This document shows positions 4,514-41,243 of a stretch of DNA of 41,964 nucleotides, one piece after another (position 1 is the first letter of the stretch; every line of letters starts with the position of its first letter). Source of the stretch: an uncultured archaeon (GTDB lineage Archaea > Iainarchaeota > Iainarchaeia > Iainarchaeales > 1-14-0-10-31-34); assembly GCA_964608675.1 (NCBI GenBank), contig CAZSOZ010000007.1, positions 1-41,964 of the forward strand. The letters run 5' to 3'. The notes under the pieces are model-generated. The model was not told the origin of the DNA, did no database searches, and worked only from the letters and a program-made list of their open reading frames with translations. Made by a program: the position numbers and the translations under genes.

Positions 4514-7378
4514 TCATCTTTTTGCAACAAGTATTACTACTATAATTATTATTATGATTAATCCGATTACTGCTCCTGCATTTTCTGCAAGTGAAATTAA
4601 TGCAGTGCTTATTCCGGTTTCTTTGAATTCTGCGATTTTATTAATTGTTTTTCCGTTATCTAATTCAAGTTTTACAGGAATATCTTGTTCCATTTCTTTT
4701 CCGTTTGTTTTCAAAGCAAACACGAATTCTTTTTTTGTTTCTTCTTTAACTTCAATTGTTGTATCCCCTTCTAATTTCCAGTCTTCCGGCAGTTCAATTA
4801 TAATGTTTCCCTGAATTTCTTCTTTGCTTTGGTTGTCTACAACTATTTTTAATTCAAGTTCATTTAATACGCTTCTTGTTGTTTCAGCTGAAACTTTTAT
4901 TTTTTCTGTGTCTTCTGTTGCTGTCAGCCTTATTTCTTTTTCACTTCTTTTTCCAAGTGATTCAACAACTAAAACAGTGTTGTATTCCCCTGTTTTTTCA
5001 GCTTTAATGCTTAAGCTGACTGTTCTGTCTGAATAAGCAGGAATAACAATGCTTTTTTCATTGGCTTTTAATTCTTCTGGCACAATCATAAAAATATTAA
5101 ATTTTCTGCTTGTTCCTGAATTATTTATTAAAGTAAAAGAAATGCTGTCTTCTAACGCAATTGTTTTTTCTCTTGGATATCCTGTTATTTCAAATGCAGT
5201 TGTTGAAGAAATAATTTTTGTGGTTTCTGATTTAATATTGCATCTGTCTATTGATATATCATAAACCAGAAAACTTTCTGTTCCTTCAAGCAGTTCAATT
5301 TCGATTGTTTTTGTTACAGTGTAATTTGCAGGAACTTCAATTAAATAAGGGCTTACACTTAAATTTGTTCCGCTGATTCTTATTTCAGCTCTTTTATTTA
5401 ATGGATTATCAATATTCAATGTTATTGTTTCTTTTCCTAAAACACTTTTAATGCTTGGAGCATTCAACGAAAAATCAATGCATGAACTTTCTTCTCTATT
5501 TACTCTTACAGTGAAATTTTTTCTTCCAATATCTGAAGCAGAACAATATTCTGCTCCTGAATAATGCCCTGAAACTTCAATGAAAACAGTTGCAGTTCCT
5601 GTTTTGTTTCCTGTAATTTTTGCAGTAATTGTTCTTGTTCCGTTTTCTGAAACAGAAGAAGGATAATAGTATTCGCTTGAATTTATTTCTGATGCATTAT
5701 CGTAAACATTAACTGAATCAACGTAAAATTTTTGATTTGCATTATTGGTTATTTCAAAATCAAAATTTTTTGTTTCTCCTTCTTTTAAAGAAACCGTTCT
5801 TGTTAATACATTTATTTCTCTGCAGTCTGATTCAAAGAAATCTTTGTTATTTATTCTTGCATTAAATCTTTTCTGTGTATCAGAAAAAGTGCATTGTCTT
5901 CCGTCTTCAAATTCTCCTTTTACTTTAAAGTAAGCTGTAATAATTTTGTCTGTGCTTACATTTTCAGTATTGATTTTAAATGAAACATTTCTTTCAGTGT
6001 AAGCAGGAATATAACTTGAATAATCTATTCCAGTAAAATTTAAGTAAGGAGAACTTTCTTCAAAGTCAACTCCATTAAAACTGTCAATGTAAAATCTTTC
6101 TCCTGAATTGTTTTTAATTGAAAAATAAAAAGAAGAAAAATCATTTTCTTCCATGCTTAAATCTCTTGTATTTAAAACCAAATCATTGCAGTTTCCTTCA
6201 AAGAAATCGTTTTCTACAGTTAAATTAATTATTTCTTCTCCTATTTCAGAATAAGAACAATGATCTCCGCCTGAATAATGTCCTGAAACCCTTAATCTAA
6301 TTGTTCCTTCTTTGTCAAAAGAAACGTTTTCGCTTTCAACTTTGTAGGTGAATTCTTTTTCAGAATTTCCAGGAATCAATGTTGGCTTGTATGTTTCAAA
6401 TGCATTAAAAAAACTGCTTGTTTCAACAACATCAAACGAATCAACGTAAAAAGAAGTATCAGAATAATTTTTTGTTTTAAAAGAAAAATATTCTGTGGAA
6501 TTTTCGTTCATTCTTTCATTTGAAGCAATAATTACTATGTCTTTGCATGACTGGAATGCATTATTCTGTATTTTAACCAGAAAATCTTCTTTAATGTTTG
6601 AACAATTTTTTCCATTATAAAACTCTCCTTCCAGTTCAAGTGTTGCTGAATCAGTTTTATCTGAATTCACTTCATTTGTTTCAAACCTGAATCTCACTTC
6701 TCCTGTGCTTCCTGCAGCAATAGAAGAATCTTTTGAAACAAGATATGTATTAAAATAGTCTTCTCCGAAAATTCTTGCGTTGTGTATTTCAAATCTTTCC
6801 TCTGAATTATTTCTTATAGTAAAACTGATTGTTTTTGTTGTGTTTTCGTTCATTGCAACAGTTTTGTTGTCAATTTCTATGTCAGAACAGAAAGCGTCTG
6901 TTCTGGGCAAAACTTGGTTAATAAAAGCAGAATGCCAGTCTTTTCTTGAGTAATCCAAGGCACTTCTTGCATAAACTACTACTTCATAAGAAGAATATCT
7001 GTCGTCTGCATAAAACGCATTATTCCAGTTAACTTCAAGATAATTTAATTGATAAACATAATAAGTTTTTACAGAAGTTTTTTTGAGGTAAATTCCGTCT
7101 CCGTAAACTTCTGTCCAAACCTGGATTTGATCGTAAGGGTCATAAACAGTATCATAATATGGGTAAACATCATAATAGTAATCAACAAAAACACTGGCTT
7201 TTATGTCGATTGCGTCTCCGTCTCTTGCAGTAATTGAACTATTATATCCAAAACTATAATCGCTGTTTAACTGAACATAATCAACTGTCGGATAATACGG
7301 ATAATAAGTATTTACGACAGCAAAAGCATTACTTAAAATAAATAAAAAAAGAATCAATACTGCAGTTTTTTTCTTCAT
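4514..7378 (-). CDS. Large membrane-anchored surface protein with tandem Cys-flanked Ig-like repeats (954 aa)
   Basis: Start moved to MKKKTAVLILFLFILSNAFA (signal peptide, GGAGG upstream); beta-rich repeats of about 115 aa, many N-x-S/T sequons, C-terminal TM helix AVIGLIIIIIIVVILVAKR. Confidence 0.85.
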   Translation of the reverse strand: MKKKTAVLILFLFILSNAFAVVNTYYPYYPTVDYVQLNSDYSFGYNSSITARDGDAIDIKASVFVDYYYDVYPYYDTVYDPYDQIQVWTEVYGDGIYLKKTSVKTYYVYQLNYLEVNWNNAFYADDRYSSYEVVVYARSALDYSRKDWHSAFINQVLPRTDAFCSDIEIDNKTVAMNENTTKTISFTIRNNSEERFEIHNARIFGEDYFNTYLVSKDSSIAAGSTGEVRFRFETNEVNSDKTDSATLELEGEFYNGKNCSNIKEDFLVKIQNNAFQSCKDIVIIASNERMNENSTEYFSFKTKNYSDTSFYVDSFDVVETSSFFNAFETYKPTLIPGNSEKEFTYKVESENVSFDKEGTIRLRVSGHYSGGDHCSYSEIGEEIINLTVENDFFEGNCNDLVLNTRDLSMEENDFSSFYFSIKNNSGERFYIDSFNGVDFEESSPYLNFTGIDYSSYIPAYTERNVSFKINTENVSTDKIITAYFKVKGEFEDGRQCTFSDTQKRFNARINNKDFFESDCREINVLTRTVSLKEGETKNFDFEITNNANQKFYVDSVNVYDNASEINSSEYYYPSSVSENGTRTITAKITGNKTGTATVFIEVSGHYSGAEYCSASDIGRKNFTVRVNREESSCIDFSLNAPSIKSVLGKETITLNIDNPLNKRAEIRISGTNLSVSPYLIEVPANYTVTKTIEIELLEGTESFLVYDISIDRCNIKSETTKIISSTTAFEITGYPREKTIALEDSISFTLINNSGTSRKFNIFMIVPEELKANEKSIVIPAYSDRTVSLSIKAEKTGEYNTVLVVESLGKRSEKEIRLTATEDTEKIKVSAETTRSVLNELELKIVVDNQSKEEIQGNIIIELPEDWKLEGDTTIEVKEETKKEFVFALKTNGKEMEQDIPVKLELDNGKTINKIAEFKETGISTALISLAENAGAVIGLIIIIIIVVILVAKR

Positions 7379-7441
7379 CAAATTCCTCCAAAAAAACACT
7401 ACTCTTAAGTAGTAAATTATATATAAGTCTGTAATTTAAGT

Positions 7442-8818: not shown

Positions 8819-10261
8819 TCAGCCTTTTACTACTCCAATTGGAACCATTCTTGCAACTTTTCTTGCTATGCCTGAAATTTCCAATGACTTAATTACTTCG
8901 TCTACGTCTTTATAGGCTTCAGGCATTTCTTCTGATAAAGTTTTAATTGAACGGGCTTTTACAAACCTTCCTGCTGACTCCATTTCCTTTTGTACGTGTT
9001 CTCCTTTTTTTGTTTTGATTGCTTTGCTTCTGCTCATTATTCTTCCTGCTCCGTGCGCTACAGAACCAAAACTTTCAGTTAAACCTTTTTTTGTTCCGAC
9101 TATAATCCATGAAGCTGTTCCCATTGAACCAGGAATGATTGCTGGATGGCCAGAATCCCTGTATTTTGATGGATTTTCTTTTCTTTCTGCAGGAAAAGCT
9201 CTTGTTGCTCCTTTTCTGTGAACCAAAACTTTCTTTTTTTTTCCGTCAATTTCGTGTTCCTCAAATTTTGCAATATTGTGTGCTACATCATACACTAAAT
9301 CCATTTCCATTTCTTCTGCTGTCCTTTTCATGACTTTTTCAAAGCTTTTTCTTGTCCAGTGAGTTATTATCTGCCTGTTAGCAAAAGCATAATTCACTGC
9401 ACAAGCCATAGCTGAAAAATATTTTTTTCCTTCAGGGGAATTAATCGGAGTGCAGGCCAACTGCTTATCTGAAACTTTAATTTTGTATTTGTTCATTGCT
9501 TTTTCCATTTCATTCAGGTAATCTGATGCAATCTGGTGTCCAAAGCCTCTGCTTCCGCAGTGAATCATTACAGTTAAATTTCCTTTTTTTAACCCGAATT
9601 TTTCTGCAGTTTTTTCATCAAATATTTTTTCTATTTTTTGTATTTCCAGAAAATGGTTTCCTGAACCAAGAGAACCTAACTGGCTTAAGCCTCTTTGAAC
9701 GGCTTTTTCTGAAACAAATTCTTTTTTTGCTTCCTTCATTTTTCCGTTTTCTTCTGTTGTCTGCAAATCTTTTTTCCAGCCGAATCCGTTTTCTACTGCC
9801 CATTCGCTTCCTTTAATCATTACTTTTTCTAATTGTTTTTTGTCTGCTTTGAATTGCCCTTTTGAACCCAGTCCTGCAGGCACTTGATTGAATAATTCAT
9901 TTAATAATTCTTTTTCTTTTCCTTTAATGTTTTTTTCAGTTAAATTTGTTTTGATTAACCGTACTCCACAGTTAATATCAAATCCGATTCCTCCTGGACT
10001 TATAATTCCTTTATTTAAATCAAATCCTGCAACCCCTCCTATTGGAAAACCATATCCTGAATGACAGTCAGAAAGCGCAATTGAATTTTTTTGTATGCCT
10101 GGAAGTTCTGCAACATTAATTAATTGCTGTACTGCTGTTTCTTCTATTCCTTCAATTATTTTTTTTGTTCCAATTATTTTTGCAGGAACCAACATTCTTC
10201 CTTCTTTTGGAATTTCATAAATTCCTTTTTCTATCTGCTTCATTTTTTTCACTTTATACAT
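8819..10261 (-). CDS. rtcB: tRNA-splicing ligase RtcB (alternative start ATG 10243)
   Basis: DCHSGYGFPIGG, GFDINCGVR, GSGNHFLE, IHCGSRGFGHQ, DVAHN, HRKGATRA, PGSMG, HGAGR motifs. Confidence 0.97.
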   Translation of the reverse strand: MYKVKKMKQIEKGIYEIPKEGRMLVPAKIIGTKKIIEGIEETAVQQLINVAELPGIQKNSIALSDCHSGYGFPIGGVAGFDLNKGIISPGGIGFDINCGVRLIKTNLTEKNIKGKEKELLNELFNQVPAGLGSKGQFKADKKQLEKVMIKGSEWAVENGFGWKKDLQTTEENGKMKEAKKEFVSEKAVQRGLSQLGSLGSGNHFLEIQKIEKIFDEKTAEKFGLKKGNLTVMIHCGSRGFGHQIASDYLNEMEKAMNKYKIKVSDKQLACTPINSPEGKKYFSAMACAVNYAFANRQIITHWTRKSFEKVMKRTAEEMEMDLVYDVAHNIAKFEEHEIDGKKKKVLVHRKGATRAFPAERKENPSKYRDSGHPAIIPGSMGTASWIIVGTKKGLTESFGSVAHGAGRIMSRSKAIKTKKGEHVQKEMESAGRFVKARSIKTLSEEMPEAYKDVDEVIKSLEISGIARKVARMVPIGVVKG

Positions 10262-10676
10262 CCACTAAAACTTCTGCAGTCCATTTGTTTTTTTCTTTCA
10301 CTGCCTTAAAGCCGTGTTTTGTTATTGCTTTTATTTCTGTTTTAATTTGATGTTTTTTAAGGTCAATCTTCTCTCCAAAACATTTTGCCTTTAGGAAAAA
10401 CTTTTTTTCCTTTTGGTTTGTTTCTGTCTTAAATTCCCTGAATATAATTTCCTGTGAATCAATCAAATACAAGACTTCTTTTAAGAATTCAAATAATGCT
10501 TCTTCAAATGATTCTGCTTTTATTTTTATTATTTCTTCGCCTGTTTTTTTCACTTTTTTTAAGTCAATTACTGCATTGCATAATGCTTTTCCTGAATTTT
10601 CAATTAATTCTTCTTTTGTTTTTCCGTAAGCCCTGAATTTCACGTCTGCTATGTGCTCTAAATATTCATATTGCAT
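10254..10676 (-). CDS. Archease (RtcB activator)
   Basis: YEYLEHIADV N-terminus, EIKAITKH, C-terminal VLVDV; directly upstream of rtcB. Confidence 0.94.
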   Translation of the reverse strand: MQYEYLEHIADVKFRAYGKTKEELIENSGKALCNAVIDLKKVKKTGEEIIKIKAESFEEALFEFLKEVLYLIDSQEIIFREFKTETNQKEKKFFLKAKCFGEKIDLKKHQIKTEIKAITKHGFKAVKEKNKWTAEVLVDV

Positions 10677-17727: not shown

Positions 17728-21544
<3,817 letters not shown>

Positions 21545-21550
21545 TTTCTT

Positions 21551-23365
21551 TTACACCTTGTCTTTAATTAATAATTTTGGCATTATTCCCAAAGACTTTA
21601 ATTCATCTAACAATAATTTAAAACCATAACTCATTTCAACTGGATAAACTGCGCTTGAATTGCATATTGGACAATATCTTCTGTTTCTTATTTGATCGTT
21701 TATTGCAATTAAACCACATTTTTCGCAGACTAATTCAATTAATTTGTCTGAGTCTTCAATTAATTTTTCATGCAATAACATTGCTGCTCCGTGCCCTACT
21801 AATGTTTCTCCTTCCATTTCTCCAAATCTTAGTCCGCCTTCTTTTTCTTTTCCTTCTGTTGGCTGTCTTGTAAGAATTTGCACTGGCCCCCTGCTTCTTG
21901 ACTGCATTTTATGTGCAACCATGTGGAATAATCTTCTGTATGAAACAACTCCTGTAAAAATCTGGCCTTCAAGTTTTTTTCCTGTTAAGCCGTCATAAAA
22001 CGCTTCTTTTCCGTCTGCTCTGAATCCTGATTCTTCAAGCATTTTTCCTATTTCTTTCTGTGAAACTGAACTGAATGGAGTTCCGTCTATTTCTTCTCCT
22101 TTTAGTGAGGCTGCTTTTCCTCCAAGCATTTCAAGCAAATGCCCTATAGTCATTCTTGATGGAATTGAATGCGGGTTTAGAATTAAATCTGGTTTAATTC
22201 CTTCTTGAGTGAAGGGCATGTCTTCTTCTGGCACAATTGCTCCTATTACTCCTTTTTGTCCGTGTTTTGATGAAAATTTGTCTCCTACTTCAGGAACCAT
22301 ATTGCTTCTGATTTTAATTTTTACTAATTTGTTTCCTTCTCCGTCTTCTGCAATAAATACTTTATCTACATAGCCTGGTTTTCCTTTTCTTACTGTCATT
22401 GAACTTTCTCTTCTTTTTTCTTGTACTACCCCGAATTCTGATACTTCTTCCAGAAATCTTGGAGGAGAAGTTCTTCCGACTATTACATCTTTTTCTGAAA
22501 CAAATTCTTCTAATTCAACTAAGCCGTCTTCGCCTAATTTTTTATAGAATTCTTCTCCTAAATAACCTACAGTTTCTTCTTTTGGAATTTCAAATTTGTC
22601 AATTTGTCCGCCTGGATATCTTGTTTCAGCAGTTTCATAAGTTCTGAAGTAAGCGCTTCTTCCAAGCCCTCTGTCTACTGCTCCTTTATTAATTATGACA
22701 GCATCTAAAATATTGAATCCATAATAAGGCATTATTGCTACAACAAAATTTTGTACTTGAGGTCTTTTTTCTAACTGCATTAAATCGCTTGTTTTTGTTT
22801 TAACTATTGCTTTTTGAGGGTAATGCAGTAAATGCCCTTCTGTGTCAGTTCTTAAATTGTGGTTGCTTCCTGATATTCCTAAAGCTTGCTTGAACATTTT
22901 TGCTCCATGTAAAGCCTTTCCTGCCATATTGTTTTCTAGATAAGGAATCAGAGAACTCACAACTGAAAGAATTCCAACCGGATCAATTTCCATGTGGGTG
23001 TGCTTGTTTGTTATTTCTTCTTCTTCAGTTGCAATTAATGCGTTTTCTTCTTCTTCTGCATCAAGGTATTCTATTGCTCCTTCTTTAACTAAATCATTCC
23101 ATTGAATTTTTCCTTCTTTTATTTGCTTTAATTGTTCTTCTTTTAATTTGAGTTTTCCGTTTTCAATTACTAATAAAGGTCTTTGAACTCTTCCTGCATC
23201 AGTATTAATATAAACTTCTTTTGTGTCTTCGTGGAATGCAATATTCACTTGGTGTTCTATTTTTCCTTTTCTTCTGTGTCCAATTAATTCTTTGGTTAAC
23301 TGTTGCGGATCTTTGTGAAATCCAATCAGTCTTCCGTTAATATATACTTTTCCCTGTGAAACCAT
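21551..23365 (-). CDS. rpoB1: DNA-directed RNA polymerase subunit B' (Rpo2C)
   Basis: NTDAGR, GDKFSSKHGQKG, NPHSIPSRMT, GGLRFGEME, C-terminal Zn ribbon (CEKCG...CPIC). Confidence 0.98.
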   Translation of the reverse strand: MVSQGKVYINGRLIGFHKDPQQLTKELIGHRRKGKIEHQVNIAFHEDTKEVYINTDAGRVQRPLLVIENGKLKLKEEQLKQIKEGKIQWNDLVKEGAIEYLDAEEEENALIATEEEEITNKHTHMEIDPVGILSVVSSLIPYLENNMAGKALHGAKMFKQALGISGSNHNLRTDTEGHLLHYPQKAIVKTKTSDLMQLEKRPQVQNFVVAIMPYYGFNILDAVIINKGAVDRGLGRSAYFRTYETAETRYPGGQIDKFEIPKEETVGYLGEEFYKKLGEDGLVELEEFVSEKDVIVGRTSPPRFLEEVSEFGVVQEKRRESSMTVRKGKPGYVDKVFIAEDGEGNKLVKIKIRSNMVPEVGDKFSSKHGQKGVIGAIVPEEDMPFTQEGIKPDLILNPHSIPSRMTIGHLLEMLGGKAASLKGEEIDGTPFSSVSQKEIGKMLEESGFRADGKEAFYDGLTGKKLEGQIFTGVVSYRRLFHMVAHKMQSRSRGPVQILTRQPTEGKEKEGGLRFGEMEGETLVGHGAAMLLHEKLIEDSDKLIELVCEKCGLIAINDQIRNRRYCPICNSSAVYPVEMSYGFKLLLDELKSLGIMPKLLIKDKV

Positions 23366-23371
23366 TTTTTC

Positions 23372-24838
23372 TCACAACTTTTTCAGTTTAACTCCCATTT
23401 CGTCAAGTAATTTTTCAACAGGTTCTTCTGCTGAATCAACTGTAACCTCTGATAATAAACTTAAATTTTTTACTAGTCCGCACTGTGGCCCGTCAGGGGT
23501 TTCAATTGGATCCAGTCTTCCCCAATGAGTTCCGTGAACGTCTCTTGCTTCATATAATTCTCTGTTTTTGTCTAATGGACTCTTTACTTTTCTTAAGTCT
23601 GTTAATGGAGCCAGAAAATTTACTCTTTCCATGAATTTGCTTACTCCTGTTGCTCTTCCAATCCAGTTTCCTGTGCTCATCGCAAACCTGATTCTTTCGC
23701 TTATTGCTCCGGGTCTTACAACAGTTGAAATATTTAGTTTTCTTCTTCTGGTGACTGTTCTGTCAACCTGAAATTTTAAGTCTTTAATAAAATATTTGAA
23801 TGAATATCTAAACAAGTGCTCCATTAATTTTCCGCTTAATTCAAGTCTTTTATTTTTATAATGGTCTTTGTCGTCTTCTTTTCTTATTCCATAACTTAAT
23901 TCTATTGATTTTGTTGCCATCATTGTTAAATAGTATGCTTTTGCCAGCCGGTCTTCTGCTCTTTGTCCAATATGAGGAAGCAGAAATGCATCAATTACTT
24001 CTTTTGCTCTTCTTAACCTGTATTCAATTACTTGTCCTGGTGCAACATATTTTCCGATTTTGTCTAATGCGTCATTTTGTTTTTTTAAGTCATCTAATTC
24101 AAGGTTTAAAAGCACGTCATTAATTATTTCTTTTTCTTCAGGAAATGCTCCAATAATGTCTTTTTCATTTGTCAAACCTAAGGCTTTAAGCAGTACAAAT
24201 AATTTTAGTTTCCTTGGAGAAGAAGGAAAGGTAACTGAAAGCACTCCATCAATGTTTCTTGTAATTCTTACTCTTCCTTTAAATGCTCCTTTTGTTGAAA
24301 TAACTTCTGCTATTGATTTGTCTTCTGTTTTTGAAATTAAGACTCTGTCTGAAGCCAAAACTTCTTGTGTCATTAATGCTTTTTCCGAACCATTAATTAC
24401 AAAATAGGCTCCATAATCCATGGAGTCTTCTCCCATTTCAATTAATTCTTCTTCATTTAATCCTTCAAGCCAGCACCTGTTTGATTTAAGCATTATTGGC
24501 ATTTCCCCTATGTAAGCTCTTTTTTCGTCTTGTTCTACATCTCTTCTTAATAATTTCATTGTCAAAAAAACAGGGCCTGAATACGTTCTATTTCTTGTTC
24601 TTGCTTCCATTGGAAAAAAATTTGCTCTTGGGCTTCCGTCTGCTTCAATTATTCTTGGCTTTAATATTTCAATGTTTTCTAATTCAATTTTTACTTCTTC
24701 TATTTTTGGAATAATTTCTTTGTTTTCTTCAACAATTTCATCTAATTTTGTGTCAATAAATTGATTATATGAATCGATTTCTTGCTGGGCAATATTTTTG
24801 CTTAAAAAATAGTTTTTAATCAGAGGCCATCCTTTCAT
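23372..24838 (-). CDS. rpoB2: DNA-directed RNA polymerase subunit B'' (Rpo2N)
   Basis: IDSYNQF, PMEARTRNRTYSGP, YFVINGSEK, DDKDHYKNKRL, TGNW, ETPDGPQCGLVKNL motifs. Confidence 0.98.
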   Translation of the reverse strand: MKGWPLIKNYFLSKNIAQQEIDSYNQFIDTKLDEIVEENKEIIPKIEEVKIELENIEILKPRIIEADGSPRANFFPMEARTRNRTYSGPVFLTMKLLRRDVEQDEKRAYIGEMPIMLKSNRCWLEGLNEEELIEMGEDSMDYGAYFVINGSEKALMTQEVLASDRVLISKTEDKSIAEVISTKGAFKGRVRITRNIDGVLSVTFPSSPRKLKLFVLLKALGLTNEKDIIGAFPEEKEIINDVLLNLELDDLKKQNDALDKIGKYVAPGQVIEYRLRRAKEVIDAFLLPHIGQRAEDRLAKAYYLTMMATKSIELSYGIRKEDDKDHYKNKRLELSGKLMEHLFRYSFKYFIKDLKFQVDRTVTRRRKLNISTVVRPGAISERIRFAMSTGNWIGRATGVSKFMERVNFLAPLTDLRKVKSPLDKNRELYEARDVHGTHWGRLDPIETPDGPQCGLVKNLSLLSEVTVDSAEEPVEKLLDEMGVKLKKL

Positions 24839-25077
24839 CTGACCACCACTCTATAATAAATAGATTTTCCTGCTGTAGGAGTTTCTCTTATAATTCTGAT
24901 TAAATCCCCTTTCTTTGCTCCAAGTTCTTCTATTACAGGATCGCTTAATGAAATCAAAGGAAATCTTTCTTTTTTTCCGCCTGCTTTAACTATAATTTTT
25001 TCTGCTTCTTCTTCAGCTACAATTTCGTGTATTGGAACTAAAAAGTGATTCATTATAGAACGCAATTTTTTTACCAA
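24835..25077 (-). CDS. rpoH: DNA-directed RNA polymerase subunit H (Rpo5)
   Basis: HFLVPIHEI, PLISLSDPV, GDLIRIIRETPTAG..YYRVV. Start placed at TTG 25077 after GGAGTTGA (ATG 25053 is possible); the 165-aa ORF call is over-extended. Confidence 0.93.
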   Translation of the reverse strand: MVKKLRSIMNHFLVPIHEIVAEEEAEKIIVKAGGKKERFPLISLSDPVIEELGAKKGDLIRIIRETPTAGKSIYYRVVVR

Positions 25078-25289
25078 CAAATCAACTCCGGAGAGAAACT
25101 TTTTTTTTGACTGGAGGGACCTTGCCAGACAAATTATTTCAAACTTAAATCGCTGTAAACATAAATAAATAATTAATAACTTAGAAGTTAGCATCAGAAA
25201 ACATTTTAAACCATTATGTTTAATTTGAATTTTAAGTCTTTTTTTCTTTCCAATAATCTTTTTATTTTCTATTTTTCTTTTTTTATATA

Positions 25290-25937
25290 ATGGTTTCAGA
25301 AAAACATTTTCCTCTGCTTCTTTTGATTGCAAAAAAAGCAGGTTTGAATGATTCTCTTAAAGCTTCCACTTCTCAGCTTGCTTTTGAATTAAATATTTCT
25401 CAGCAGTCGGTTTCAAGAAAATTAAGTTTTCTTGCACAAAAAAAACTAATTGAAAGAAAAGTTTTTGCTGATGGAAACATAATTCATTTAACAGAAAAAG
25501 GAAAAAAACTTTTGTTTAAAAGAAAACAGGAATTAGATAAAATTTTTTCTTCAAAAAAAAAGAAGACAATCAAAGGAAAAGTTCTTTCAGGTTTAGGTGA
25601 AGGAAAATATTACGTGAATGTTTCAGGCTACCAAAAGCAATTCAAGGAAAAACTAGGAAAAAAAATTTTTCCCGGAACATTAAACCTTAAAGTGAATGAA
25701 TCTGAATTAAATGCTTTTCTTTCTTCAAAACAAAAAATTGCAGTTGAGGGCTTTTCAGACAGCAGGAGATCTTTTGGTCCTGCTTTATTGTTTAAAGCAA
25801 AATTAAATTCTGTTGAAGGCGCAGTAATTGTTCCTGAAAGAACAAACCATCCTTCGAATGTCATTGAATTTATTTCTCCTTTTTTTCTCAGAAATAAATT
25901 GAACCTCAAAGACAATTCTGTTGTTCAGTTGTCTTGA
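25290..25937 (+). CDS. ribK: CTP-dependent riboflavin kinase with N-terminal winged HTH (RbkR-like)
   Basis: LNISQQSVSRKL HTH; GKVLSGLGEGKYY, FPGTLNL, PERTNHP, EFISPFFLR motifs. Confidence 0.93.
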   Translation: MVSEKHFPLLLLIAKKAGLNDSLKASTSQLAFELNISQQSVSRKLSFLAQKKLIERKVFADGNIIHLTEKGKKLLFKRKQELDKIFSSKKKKTIKGKVLSGLGEGKYYVNVSGYQKQFKEKLGKKIFPGTLNLKVNESELNAFLSSKQKIAVEGFSDSRRSFGPALLFKAKLNSVEGAVIVPERTNHPSNVIEFISPFFLRNKLNLKDNSVVQLS

Positions 25938-37475: not shown

Positions 37476-40400
37476 TTATGAATTTTGCATTGCCTTGTTT
37501 AAGTATTCTTCTGCGTCTTGTTTTGTCCATCCTGTTGTGTTTGTTTCTTTGTATTCTTCTGGCATTTCGCATGGTGCTGGTCCTTCATTAAAAATGTAGT
37601 TTATTAAGTATACGAGGTCTGCAATATTTACTTTTTGGTTTTGGTTTGGGTCTGCACAAACTGTTATTGGATTGCATTTTGGTGCTGGTCCTTCATTAAA
37701 AATGTAATTAATTAAATAGCTGACATCTATTATGTTTACTTTTTTGTCATTGTTTGGGTCACCACATAAAAATGGTTTTGTGTAAGCTCCAGTGTGTTGT
37801 GGATTGTTTCTGTACATTTGCCAGTCACTTGAAAATTCAGTGTAGTTAGCATCAAATTCCCAAACATAAATATATTCATCTGTTGCTAATACAATGTCTA
37901 TTTTTCTATCATTATCAATATCATCAAAAATTGGAGTAATATACATAGTATAATCCCAGGGGTACCAGTCTTGTATTTTGTAAGAATCAATAATTTTTGG
38001 CCAGTTTATTATATAAGAACCATTTTTATGAATTCCATAAAATTTTTTGTCTTTTAGCCCGTAAATGTTTACATTAAATATTTCTTTTTGGTTGTCGTTG
38101 TCTATGTCGCCTGTTACTGGTTCATTATAATAAAAGCTTGCAGGCAAGTGGTATTCTTCAATTATTTTTCCCATATAATCAAAGATGTAATTGTTATAGG
38201 TTGAAACAAACACTTCCAAAAACCCGTCATTGTCTAAATCAAATGGAATTAATGAAAAAATATATGCGCTTGAGTTAATTATTGCTGGCCAGCCATTAAT
38301 TTCATTTCCTGCGGAATTTATTGCATGTATTTTTGTTGTCCATTTTTGATAATTGGCATCACTCTGGTTTTTATCAGCATACAATATTTCCATAGTGTTA
38401 TCTTTATCTAGGTCAGCTAAAGCAAATGTTCCATTATTCTCTTCTTCTTTTATAATTGGCCATCCATTTAATTCATTTCCATCAGAATTAAATAAATGAA
38501 GTTCTCTTCTATCTAATGAATAATTGTTTCCATAAAGGAATATTTCTTTGTGTCCATCTCCAGTTATATCTCCTACTGCAGGAGGAGACTGAAAGCCTAT
38601 TGCAGGAATCGTTGCAATCCATTTCAAGCTTCCATCATGATTAAAAACATAAATTTTGTCTTTGGTTCCGCAACTATTGTTTCCGCATAGAGGAAAAGCT
38701 AAAATAATTATTTCTTTTAGTCCATCATTGTCTAAATCTGTAATTATTGGAACAGATTCTGGATTGAAATGATAATTTGCTATCCAATTTTGCCATAAAA
38801 CAGTTCCTTCAGAAGAAACACATGCTAATTCATTATATGAATTAAAAATTATTTCTTTTGTCTCGTCATTGTCTAAGTCGTCAACAGAAGGAACAGTTTT
38901 TATCCTAAGCGAAAATTTGTTTAATTCAGATTCTTCTTTGTTTGATAAAGGCCATCCTTCAATGTCTTCTCCATAAATATTTAATGCATGAGTTAGCAAG
39001 CTCCAATTTTCTTTTTCAATTTCCTGAAAAATTATTTCTTTTTTTTCATCTCCGGTTATGTCTGCTACCAAAACAGGATGTACATTAATCATTCCAAACT
39101 CCATTTTTTTTGGCCACCCTTGTTTGTAATCAGGATCCACAATTATTGTTTCTTTTTCTTCATTAACTAAACCATCTTTGTGAAAAACTTTTAATTTTAA
39201 AGTATAAGTGTAATTATAGTCATTCATTCCAGAAGTGTCAAGCGTTCCTAACAAAGAATCAATTACAGGGCTTTGCCCATTATTTTCTAGATTTATTCCT
39301 GTAGTAAACCATTCATTTGGTTCTTCTCCTATTCCCCATTCAATAATGTAATTGGAAAAATGGCTTCCTATAGCAGAACCATTTATTTGAACTGTTTCCT
39401 CTAGCTTAAAAAATCTTTTAGATAAATTAATATCAGCGTTATCTAAAAATAAAACTGTTTTGTAGTTTGTTTGCAATATATTCCCATCATCAACTGTTAG
39501 TTTTAATACATATAATCCATCTTTATTTCTTGTTGAATCAATTTGACCTAAAACACTGTCATCAATTTCAATTAATCCTTCATCATTAAGTTCAATTCCT
39601 TCTGTTTTCCATTCAATTGGATTAAGGCCTCCTCCAATTGAAATTACATAATTATCAAAGGTTGAAAAGGGAAGTTCGCCTTTTTTTGCTGTCCCATTAA
39701 TTGAATTAGTTTCTCTTAATGTTCCGTAATCTTCAAGATTCATATGAGAAACTGGAAGTTCGTTTGGTTTATTTGGCTTTAATGTTGGGTCGCCAAGTAA
39801 TTCCATTCCATAATGCCATGTCATGTTGTTTATTCCTATTTCATTGAACCAGAACTTAAATGCTTCCCCTAATGTTTGTCTTTCTCCTAATGGGCCATAA
39901 AAATAGTTGAAATCAAGCATGCTCCCTGATTTAGTTGAGCTAATTACTCCAACACCATAAGTGTCTGCAAACAAATATCTTCCTGCTAGATAATTCTGTT
40001 CAGTAAACTTTGCTGCAGAACACGCAAATAAATTATAGAATAATGCATGCGGATCTATATTTTGAATATCTTCTGAGGAAACATCCCTATTTGACTCGCT
40101 TTCAAAAATATGGCCTCTTGGCCAAGAATGAACAAAAACTGAAATCCAGTCATAATTCCATAATAATCTTGTTTTGTAATCCAACTCATTTGTTCCATTT
40201 TTGTCTTTTACTTTTGTTGTGTATTTATATAATTCTTGCATATCTTGGTTCCATTCTTCTGCCCAATACTGCCAGTCATTATCAACATAAACTAAACTTC
40301 TGTTTGGAAGTTTCAAGTTTTGTGTTCTGTATAAATGGTTTTTGTAAAAATAATTTTTGTATAAATCAATTATGTTTCCTTCTAATGTTGTTGCATCAAT

Positions 40401-41243
40401 TCTTCCAATCCAGATTTCTGCTTCAGTGTTTCCTGAATGTTCATCATATATTCCATCTGATTCAAAATCAGTCCATGTTCCATCCAAATCCATGTAAAAT
40501 AAATCCAAAGGAAACTCTTCAAAGGATTGCATGTCTAAAAACCATGCTGTAGGAATATCTCCAACAAAAATTGCTCCTTGAAGTTCAGGCAAACCCTGCT
40601 CCAAGAAATTCTTTAAATCTTCTGGCGCGCCAAAAGTTCCAAAATATAATTCAACACTATACCCTTCATTTTGTAAATCAAAAACAAAAGTCTGAAGTTC
40701 TTGTTCTAATTCATAATAAACTCCTGCATCAACAACAACATAAATCAAATTACTTTTGTTTTTTTCTCCTGAATCAAATGCTTTTTGAATATTAAAAGGC
40801 TGAACTTTTCTATTTTTAGTATATTCCTCATAATTCATTGGTTTTGTTCCTTTTGGGCCAGCCCATCGTGTTTTTGCTATAAAGTCTTGTTCTTTTATGC
40901 TTGTATCTCCCTCCAAATATTTTTGATAGTTTTTTATTCTTGTTTGATGTTCTTCAACGGTTTCCCTAAATTCTTTTTGGATTAATGGATGATAAACTCT
41001 TTCTATTTCACTTAAAACAACTTTTTGTTTTTCACAAACATTTTCTTCGTCTGTTTGTTTGTCACAATCATTATCTAATCCATCGCATATTTCTGTTGAA
41101 GGAATGCACTCTGGTTCTATTGTTGTTGGTTCTGTTGTTTTTGTGTCTAATGATTTGATTGCTTTTCCTGTGTCAGTTTGAGTGCAACCAGAAAAAAACA
41201 AAATAAGTAAAATCAAGAAAAGTGCTGTTGATTTTTTGGGCAT
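37476..41243 (-). CDS. Large lipoprotein: Cys-rich metal-binding motif, C25 (gingipain-like) peptidase domain, two Ig-like repeats, FG-GAP/VCBS repeats, dockerin
   Basis: FFSG-C20 lipobox; EICDGLDNDCD; FVGDIP, EIWIGRI, FVHS, LFACS, LLGDPTL; repeated D-[LI]-D-N-D-G-x-x-E and GWP; duplicated C-terminal dockerin-type repeat. Confidence 0.85.
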   Translation of the reverse strand: MPKKSTALFLILLILFFSGCTQTDTGKAIKSLDTKTTEPTTIEPECIPSTEICDGLDNDCDKQTDEENVCEKQKVVLSEIERVYHPLIQKEFRETVEEHQTRIKNYQKYLEGDTSIKEQDFIAKTRWAGPKGTKPMNYEEYTKNRKVQPFNIQKAFDSGEKNKSNLIYVVVDAGVYYELEQELQTFVFDLQNEGYSVELYFGTFGAPEDLKNFLEQGLPELQGAIFVGDIPTAWFLDMQSFEEFPLDLFYMDLDGTWTDFESDGIYDEHSGNTEAEIWIGRIDATTLEGNIIDLYKNYFYKNHLYRTQNLKLPNRSLVYVDNDWQYWAEEWNQDMQELYKYTTKVKDKNGTNELDYKTRLLWNYDWISVFVHSWPRGHIFESESNRDVSSEDIQNIDPHALFYNLFACSAAKFTEQNYLAGRYLFADTYGVGVISSTKSGSMLDFNYFYGPLGERQTLGEAFKFWFNEIGINNMTWHYGMELLGDPTLKPNKPNELPVSHMNLEDYGTLRETNSINGTAKKGELPFSTFDNYVISIGGGLNPIEWKTEGIELNDEGLIEIDDSVLGQIDSTRNKDGLYVLKLTVDDGNILQTNYKTVLFLDNADINLSKRFFKLEETVQINGSAIGSHFSNYIIEWGIGEEPNEWFTTGINLENNGQSPVIDSLLGTLDTSGMNDYNYTYTLKLKVFHKDGLVNEEKETIIVDPDYKQGWPKKMEFGMINVHPVLVADITGDEKKEIIFQEIEKENWSLLTHALNIYGEDIEGWPLSNKEESELNKFSLRIKTVPSVDDLDNDETKEIIFNSYNELACVSSEGTVLWQNWIANYHFNPESVPIITDLDNDGLKEIIILAFPLCGNNSCGTKDKIYVFNHDGSLKWIATIPAIGFQSPPAVGDITGDGHKEIFLYGNNYSLDRRELHLFNSDGNELNGWPIIKEEENNGTFALADLDKDNTMEILYADKNQSDANYQKWTTKIHAINSAGNEINGWPAIINSSAYIFSLIPFDLDNDGFLEVFVSTYNNYIFDYMGKIIEEYHLPASFYYNEPVTGDIDNDNQKEIFNVNIYGLKDKKFYGIHKNGSYIINWPKIIDSYKIQDWYPWDYTMYITPIFDDIDNDRKIDIVLATDEYIYVWEFDANYTEFSSDWQMYRNNPQHTGAYTKPFLCGDPNNDKKVNIIDVSYLINYIFNEGPAPKCNPITVCADPNQNQKVNIADLVYLINYIFNEGPAPCEMPEEYKETNTTGWTKQDAEEYLNKAMQNS
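37572..37706. repeat. 27-bp exact direct repeat encoding the two dockerin halves
   Basis: TGGTGCTGGTCCTTCATTAAAAATGTA at 37572-37598 and 37680-37706 (YIFNEGPAP twice). Confidence 0.9.

Follow-up and report, generated by a model that had tools for sequence, protein, structure and literature searches.

An RNA polymerase catalytic centre without the ED-pair glutamate, shared across the Iainarchaeota

Can a cellular RNA polymerase do without the glutamate of the Glu-Asp (ED) pair in its metal-B motif, and is such a loss a peculiarity of one genome or the property of a lineage? This question is raised by a stretch of 41,964 nucleotides (contig CAZSOZ010000007.1 of assembly GCA_964608675.1; hereafter the window) from an uncultured archaeon of the Iainarchaeota (Diapherotrites, DPANN), which carries the genes of polymerase subunits A', A'', B' and B''. 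In B', the Glu of the pair is replaced by Leu220 (TTA, 22706-22708) within GFNILDAV, and the Asp is kept as Asp221 (22703-22705). In the loop YLENNMAGKALHG, Gly149-Lys150-Ala151 stand instead of Pro-Arg-Asn, with Lys150 (AAG, 22916-22918) at the position of yeast Rpb2 R766 and E. coli beta R678. In the basic loop GDKFSSKHGQKG, Lys367 (AAA, 22265-22267) is found for the Arg of the Rpb2 R983 position, and Lys363 and Lys371 are kept. A first-pass annotation of this DNA, made from the letters alone, had reported all of these changes, together with ETPDG for ETPEG in B'', and each was found where it had been placed. One change had been missed, namely Gln488 for His in B'.

The B' stretches align without gaps to subunit B of Pyrococcus, Thermococcus and Sulfolobus (E = 1e-224 to 1e-194; phmmer against the PDB). 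B' residues 6-604 match a PDB subunit B with E = 1.2e-224, and the Rpb2 domains follow one another in the expected order (PF04566, PF04567, PF00562 with 408 bits, and PF04560; Pfam). For yeast Rpb2 numbering, we used the phmmer match of query residues 121-599 to chain residues 737-1217, which gives an offset of 616. By this offset, L220 corresponds to E836, D221 to D837, K150 to R766, K363, K367 and K371 to K979, R983 and K987, R404 to R1020, and E412 to E1028, in agreement with the residue names in PMC3533926 and PMC2919709. The different register for which the first-pass annotation had allowed is thus not borne out. The same mapping removed another candidate, EGKEKEGG (21833-21856), considered as the R1020 equivalent and hence as a second lost nucleoside triphosphate (NTP) Arg, as the offset puts R1020 at the intact R404. 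Among the eight residues listed as invariant in two-barrel polymerases (PMC2919709), B' has the share that belongs to the B subunit, D221, K363 and K371 (equivalents of D837, K979 and K987). At the fifth carboxylate, the Rpb2 E836 equivalent, it has Leu220.

Genome loci and metagenome proteins supplied 259 B' sequences of Iainarchaeota and gave 211 distinct aligned strings, of which 209 cover the counted columns. We compared them with a canonical set of 81 sequences from 80 non-DPANN archaeal loci. Glu was found in none of the 209 Iainarchaeota sequences, which have L 159, M 26, Q 8, I 3, T 3, V 2, A 2, D 2, and S, Y, F and K once each; the canonical set has E 78, Q 2 (both Thermofilaceae) and one gap. 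Orders of the phylum other than that of the window likewise lack Glu and have K, M, T, D, A or Q there. Asp221, Lys363, Lys371, Arg404, Glu412 and Gln488 are each present in 209/209. The column of Gln488 holds H 71 and Y 9 in the canonical set; we take this His to be the E. coli residue that cross-links to the initiating nucleotide. ETPDG occurs in all eight motif variants printed for 35 Iainarchaeota loci, and the Cys position before it varies (D, C or G). Close relatives, among them archaeon GW2011_AR10 (complete genome, Candidatus Iainarchaeum/Diapherotrites, 75% identity), share the noncanonical residues with distant ones, and not the canonical residues that would have refuted the first-pass annotation.

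The other positions were less uniform. At the R766 position, the phylum has K 184 and R 23 (n = 207), and the Gly149 column has G in 195/207; the canonical set has P 77, R 79/79 and N 76 in the three columns of Pro-Arg-Asn. The loss of an NTP-binding Arg announced by the first-pass annotation is real in the window as far as Lys150 goes, but the positive charge is kept, the 23 sequences mentioned still have Arg, and a second NTP-contacting Arg, R404, is intact. Similarly, Lys367 is real, but the residue at its position differs within the phylum (R 124, K 66, other 19). The canonical set has 160 B' columns with a conservation of at least 95%; only seven of them were replaced phylum-wide in Iainarchaeota (28, 149, 151, 220, 239, 329 and 506), and three of these (149, 151 and 220) fall in the two motifs flagged by the first-pass annotation. 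The pattern goes beyond chance. The remaining ones are R28I/V, F239Y, E329K and R506K, the latter in an EG-R/K motif (B' residues 504-511, 21833-21856).

Codons at the Glu site were counted in relatives, over 97 distinct DNA contexts; those for Leu were CTT 18, TTG 14, TTA 10, CTG 10, CTC 7 and CTA 1. With all six Leu codons in use, this is synonymous turnover under selection for Leu. The gene is present as a single copy. Its reading frame has no internal stop, and NADFDGD, PSRMT and the HMV..K motif (here HMVAHK) are intact, as the first-pass annotation had observed in arguing against decay. The B' substitutions are neither error nor decay.

The changes are not confined to B'. In 30/30 Iainarchaeales, replacements occur at five positions of the bridge helix, seven of the trigger loop and two of the F-loop, and these positions are conserved in 16-18 of 17-18 canonical archaea, those of the trigger loop in 18/18. 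For the bridge helix, the residue of the window itself is found in 27-30 of the 30 relatives, and the canonical one in 16-17 of 17 canonical archaea. The trigger-loop Lys105 adjoins the retained catalytic His. The description of the whole active centre as remodelled, given by the first-pass annotation, is thus right as a description; the altered metal use, NTP selectivity or proofreading that it suggested is conjectural. We also considered the trigger-loop Arg (RTKH) as a compensation for the lost positive charge, and rejected it since Arg is normal there in canonical archaea (16/18; Asn 1, Lys 1).

Published work shows how the ED pair and its surroundings contribute to catalysis. Mg-B is liganded by the NTP phosphates, two Asp of the A'/Rpb1 triad and Rpb2 D837, and E836 adds a water-mediated bond (PMC2919709). 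The 'metal-B Glu' of the first-pass annotation is indeed substituted, but that Glu acts through water and is not the primary ligand; the primary ligand of the pair is the Asp, conserved as Asp221. The E836-equivalent Glu is described as 'present in nearly all' two-barrel polymerases but not as one of the eight invariants, and it is absent from Qde1 and YonO-like enzymes; the R1020 equivalent occurs in every DNA-dependent two-barrel polymerase (PMC2919709). The D814 residue of E. coli is placed so as to bind Mg2 but E813 is 'not well positioned', and cleavage is inhibited less by E813 than by D814 substitutions (bioRxiv 10.1101/2024.06.20.599782). In the E. coli double mutant E813A/D814A, Mg-II is no longer retained at high pH, and most of the exonuclease activity stimulated by phosphate is gone (PMC5856549). 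Yeast rpb2-E836A is viable and slow, with a severe fidelity defect, but D837A is lethal; R766A/Q and R1020K/Q are lethal as well, and E. coli R678C has minor defects (PMC3533926). In the open state, the first motif's Arg, R557 (= R766), is paired with the Asp of the second (PMC3533926), and the two B' motifs therefore make up one contact cluster around Mg-B.

The natural pattern, in which Glu is lost, Asp and the R1020 equivalent are invariant and R766 is replaced by Lys only, matches what these mutants permit. The yeast E836A and D837A and the E. coli beta E813A/Q and D814A/N mutants concern the same position, and they show the Glu to be dispensable for viability and catalysis, and the Asp not. 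However, they are engineered single changes in canonical enzymes and are costly, whereas in Iainarchaeota the replacement is both ancient and fixed, and further fixed substitutions go with it. Qde1 and YonO-like polymerases also lack the fifth carboxylate and keep the eight invariants (PMC2919709), but they are single-subunit enzymes and very distant, whereas the window encodes a full multisubunit archaeal polymerase.

A natural precedent exists in the DPANN polymerase of Nanoarchaeum equitans (Nottebaum and Weinzierl 2021; PMC8204694), whose bridge helix, trigger loop, fork loop 3 and metal-B motif all carry radical substitutions. Gln takes the place of one of the two metal-B acids, and the changes in fork loop 3 are Cys to Asp, Gly to Asp, Val/Ile to Arg and Asn to Ala. 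Once reconstituted, the enzyme is active in vitro, about 200-300 mM fluoride is needed there for maximal activity, and the organism encodes TFS. Both polymerases have one metal-B acid naturally replaced, unusual bridge-helix, trigger-loop and fork-loop-3 residues, and a Cys-to-Asp change before ETP.G in fork loop 3. As to the last, Cys-to-Asp is all that the two fork loops share, and within the Iainarchaeota it varies: ETPDG is a Glu-to-Asp and not a Gly-to-Asp change, and VKNL is canonical in the window. In contrast with the polar Gln of N. equitans, the window has Leu, with no Glu in 209 sequences of the phylum; its bridge helix contains no Pro, a residue typical of that helix in N. equitans, its set of bridge-helix and trigger-loop changes is different, it belongs to another phylum, and TFS was not found in its genome or in the Iainarchaeota sampled (see below). 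The authors mention similar patterns in Woesearchaeota and Pacearchaeota (PMC8204694), whereas most Woesearchaeota sampled here keep Glu. The Iainarchaeota enzyme is a more radical variant of a DPANN phenomenon already published for Nanoarchaeota.

How far does the loss of Glu reach? Outside the phylum, 148 cluster representatives have E 129, Q 5, D 4, T 1, K 1 and gaps 8 in this column. The changes there are sporadic. Gln occurs in Thermofilaceae, Geoarchaeota-like Thermoproteota, some Thermoplasmata and the Thermoplasmatales 'I-plasma', Asp in Korarchaeia-like and Nanoarchaeia genomes, and Lys in Kor1-type genomes. In the Micrarchaeota group, 24/25 loci are non-Glu (A 11, G 6, N 3, Q 2, T 1, S 1; E 1). 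Micrarchaeota are sister to Iainarchaeota in the B' tree, have likewise lost the Glu and mostly have no TFS found; unlike the window, their replacements are small or polar, with Lys in a subgroup, and not Leu, the Pro-Arg is retained, and their bridge helix, like their trigger loop, is near-canonical. Woesearchaeota mostly keep Glu, with very divergent Pro-Arg loops, and three have Lys; Altiarchaeota keep Glu in 2/2 loci checked. The Asn after Pro-Arg did not co-vary simply with the Glu state, as Woesearchaeota and Altiarchaeota change Asn and retain Glu.

We built a B' tree (FastTree, LG + gamma, midpoint-rooted) of 182 sequences, obtained from 355 by filtering to <80% identity; rows with >60 gaps and all metagenome-only proteins were left out. 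Iainarchaeota (57) and Micrarchaeota (18) form a clade with support of 0.989 together with one metagenome-assembled genome (MAG) labelled Marsarchaeota, and Glu is present in 1 of the 76 members. The simplest reading is a single loss of Glu, probably in the ancestor that Iainarchaeota share with Micrarchaeota. The Marsarchaeota-labelled MAG (L428, 0.7 Mb) groups within Micrarchaeota, has Asp for Glu and Gly-Lys for Pro-Arg, and gave only a weak TFS match (28 bits); its label or bin may be wrong.

Because the ED pair takes part in transcript cleavage, we looked for the cleavage factor TFS, using the TFIIS zinc ribbon (Pfam PF01096) and counting genomes matched over genomes searched. The archaeal control genomes gave TFS in 4/4 in every run. 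TFS was not found in the genome of the window, in which TIGR01384 gave nothing above cut-off either, nor in the Iainarchaeota genomes that are at least 85% complete (0/121) or in further-tested genomes of the phylum including the complete AR10 (0/4). It was not found in Altiarchaeota (0/2 and 0/42), in Micrarchaeota-group genomes (0/25) or in one Nanobdellati-labelled genome of 0.5 Mb (0/1). A wider sample of Micrarchaeota had it in 10/101, with weak matches of 20-46 bits. TFS was present in 32/33 non-DPANN archaea, in 3/3 Hydrothermarchaeota and Thermoplasmata, and in 24/24 genomes comprising 6 Korarchaeia-like, 4 Geoarchaeota-like, 13 Nanoarchaeota/Woesearchaeota-type and 1 Marsarchaeota-labelled. 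The matches in Woesearchaeota-type genomes show that the search works on DPANN MAGs. In the literature, DPANN genomics papers included, we found neither a description of the Iainarchaeota/Micrarchaeota active-site variant nor a statement that TFS is absent from these phyla; subscription journals and supplements were outside the scope of this search.

The genome of the window was searched further. A custom hidden Markov model built from 14 TFS sequences, DPANN ones included, gave 19 bits at best, and a regular expression for the hairpin ribbon matched none of 17,947 six-frame open reading frames (ORFs). No Gre factor or domain was found in this genome. Sub-threshold TFS matches were rejected: a 45-aa zinc ribbon lacks the acidic hairpin, a small zinc-ribbon protein was tentatively read as ribosomal protein S27ae, and others tentatively as L44e and RpoP. 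A 123-aa protein (G000:C2; L142 1264-1635, minus strand) was rejected as well, as it has an N-terminal ribbon only and no C-terminal one. This ribbon is weakly like the Rpb9/TFS N-ribbon (PF02150, E = 0.013) and is followed by a low-complexity tail; the match may be fortuitous, or the protein may be what is left of a TFS. A mini-TFS of about 84 aa, in which two zinc ribbons are joined almost directly and the acidic DE hairpin is kept, is encoded by some Micrarchaeota. Four Micrarchaeota genomes with a weak TFS match, including those of L452 and L470, have Lys at the Glu site of RpoB, in GYNMKDA (L455, L457-L459).

Taken together, we regard as the best full explanation, with a probability of about 75%, that the window encodes the single working RNA polymerase of an Iainarchaeota archaeon and that its catalytic centre is a lineage-wide variant under selection. 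Catalytic activity of the assembled enzyme is suggested by the single copy and strong conservation of its gene. According to this explanation, the second-shell, water-mediated Glu would have been lost in the ancestor of Iainarchaeota and Micrarchaeota, and a hydrophobic residue, mostly Leu, would then have been fixed in Iainarchaeota. Two-metal catalysis would be unchanged: Mg-A would be held by the NADFDGD triad of A', and Mg-B by the same triad, the retained Asp221 of B' and the NTP phosphates. The Pro-Arg-Asn loop that touches the ED pair would have become Gly-Lys-Ala, and the fixed changes in the bridge helix, trigger loop and F-loop probably re-tune the site. Without bound NTP, a Glu-less site may hold Mg-B less tightly, which would lower hydrolytic cleavage and pyrophosphorolysis and possibly affect speed or fidelity. 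Such costs might be tolerable in a 1.2-Mb genome without TFS or a Gre cleavage factor.

Several points weigh against this explanation. The weaker retention of Mg-B, lower cleavage and lower fidelity are extrapolated from mutants of other enzymes. A tree of one gene speaks only weakly for a single ancestral loss, and the monophyly of Iainarchaeota has a support of only 0.3. Micrarchaeota have lost Glu with a near-canonical bridge helix and trigger loop, and thus the changes in those elements are not needed for tolerance. Finally, that Leu or Met is so strongly fixed hints at positive selection in favour of hydrophobicity, for which the explanation does not account.

The Glu might alternatively serve mainly to hold Mg-B during TFS-stimulated cleavage, in which case the position would have become free after TFS was lost in a DPANN branch. 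The distribution of TFS speaks for this possibility, with 0/121 Iainarchaeota, 0/42 Altiarchaeota and 10/101 Micrarchaeota against 32/33 non-DPANN archaea, and with matches in all 24 Korarchaeia-like, Geoarchaeota-like, Nanoarchaeota/Woesearchaeota and Marsarchaeota-labelled genomes. So do the replacements themselves, as hydrophobic or small residues (L, M, A, G) occur only in lineages in which no TFS was found, and the TFS-bearing lineages have Q, D or K. Nevertheless, Altiarchaeota keep Glu in 2/2 loci though no TFS was found in the phylum, TFS is present in Kor1-type genomes with an E-to-K change, Lys likewise occupies the site in Micrarchaeota with a mini-TFS and its acidic DE hairpin, and N. 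equitans has both Gln and TFS (PMC8204694). A strict coupling of Glu loss and TFS loss was rejected on account of the Altiarchaeota, which have Glu with no TFS found, and of the Kor1-type genomes and the Micrarchaeota subgroup, which have TFS with Lys. Moreover, conservation of Leu with turnover of its codons indicates selection and not free drift, and the independent events are few. We consider a release from constraint of this kind unlikely.

Another possibility is that a hydrophobic, Glu-less pocket and the Lys for Arg are tuned to another metal such as Mn2+, an anion or a cofactor, resembling the fluoride-stimulated enzyme of N. equitans. That enzyme combines a divergent metal-B motif with its fluoride requirement of about 200-300 mM (PMC8204694), Leu or Met is fixed across Iainarchaeota, and three of the seven phylum-wide replaced columns lie in two contacting loops around Mg-B. 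However, even in N. equitans the fluoride effect is not known to be linked with the substitution in the metal-B motif, and the Ala or Gly of Micrarchaeota are not hydrophobic, so that no common new pocket is apparent; an adaptation of the chemistry seems to us very improbable. A sequencing or assembly error, a wrong register, a pseudogene or a spare paralogue can practically be dismissed, given the gap-free alignment, the absence of stops, the single copy in a canonical operon and the same residues in 209 distinct sequences from many independent assemblies.

The polymerase genes lie in an operon of canonical order, rpoH-B''-B'-A'-A''-L30e-NusA-S12-S7-EF2-EF1a-S10, in which NusA is a NusA-like KH protein (Table 1). 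The genome (1.2 Mb in 53 contigs, 94% complete) has rpoB' as a single-copy gene, and no second rpoB copy was found at that completeness. The RpoH ORF of 165 aa (24835-25332, minus strand) is an extension by the ORF finder from a TTG; it overlaps the plus-strand riboflavin kinase gene at 25290-25937, and Rpb5_C begins only at its residue 92. The start is probably the ATG at 25053, which gives an ordinary 72-aa protein. In some other genomes, the A'' match lies inside open frames of 1140-1280 aa (G034:C2:7920-9095 and G013:C12:7743-8909; also G227, G216, G258, G266 and G244), one of which is interrupted by a single in-frame TAA. Judging from these frames, this suggests an A'-A'' gene fusion in some Iainarchaeota families and several other archaea.

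Table 1. Positions of the genes and motifs discussed, in the window unless a locus is named
Feature	Coordinates	Strand	Description
rpoH (Rpo5), first operon gene	24835-25053	minus	~72 aa from ATG at 25053; Pfam Rpb5_C
rpoB'' (Rpo2N)	23372-24838	minus	488 aa
B'' fork-loop region GRLDPIETPDG	23489-23521	minus	Asp for Cys; ETPDG (23489-23503) for ETPEG
rpoB' (Rpo2C)	21551-23365	minus	604 aa; ORF; Pfam Rpb2 domains 4, 5, 6, 7
B' loop YLENNMAGKALHG	22904-22942	minus	B' residues 142-154; canonical ...HN..PRN.Y loop replaced
B' metal-B motif GFNILDAV	22697-22720	minus	B' residues 216-223
B' basic loop GDKFSSKHGQKG	22250-22285	minus	B' residues 361-372
B' PSRMTIGHLLE	22130-22162	minus	Arg404 (R1020 equivalent) and Glu412 (E1028 equivalent) intact
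B' HKMQSRSRGP	21884-21913	minus	Gln488 for usual His of K-[IM]-H-A-R motif
rpoA' (Rpo1N)	18938-21544	minus	868 aa
A' NRQPSLH (R..P motif)	20318-20338	minus	intact
A' NADFDGD	20216-20236	minus	intact
A' bridge helix	19109-19180	minus	E793Q, L795E, A799G, R801S, Q809Y
A' F-loop changes			positions 757-758; canonical His-Phe gone
rpoA'' (Rpo1C)	17728-18930	minus	400 aa
A'' trigger loop	18559-18642	minus	M100L, F105K, V110A, T116G, L119I, P120Q, I123E; catalytic His106 kept
Micrarchaeota mini-TFS, example	L452 1474-1749	minus	91-aa ORF (84-aa mini-TFS); also L470, L472

Three other genes of the window were noted. A 961-aa ORF (4514-7399, minus strand) between the genes for ribosomal protein L3 and a glycosyltransferase has no Pfam match at 1e-5. 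The tRNA ligase RtcB and its activator Archease are paired at 8819-10676 (minus strand) within the ribosomal-protein and elongation-factor cluster. A 1255-aa protein (37476-41243, minus strand) has FG-GAP repeats and a C-terminal dockerin type I domain, an architecture from which it is probably a surface protein.

A bolder proposal is that Iainarchaeota, Micrarchaeota and Altiarchaeota dropped factor-dependent cleavage and that, in the ancestor shared by the first two, the Mg-B site was rebuilt to lack the second carboxylate, with Leu, the fixed trigger-loop Lys and a relocated bridge-helix Glu as a new way for a multisubunit polymerase to hold NTP-Mg. We hold this to be tentative and rather doubtful; if it were true, these cells would run on a polymerase with differently tuned or absent proofreading. 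As for the variant itself, a whole phylum and its sister phylum live without the Glu, and Iainarchaeota have fixed a hydrophobic residue in its place. They provide a natural, selected background in which to ask what share the second carboxylate has in retaining Mg-B and in fidelity, pyrophosphorolysis and cleavage, which accompanying changes keep the cost of its loss low, and how cells manage without a recognisable cleavage factor. The single published case of N. equitans is thereby extended to a different and much larger part of the DPANN archaea, with a different set of substitutions.

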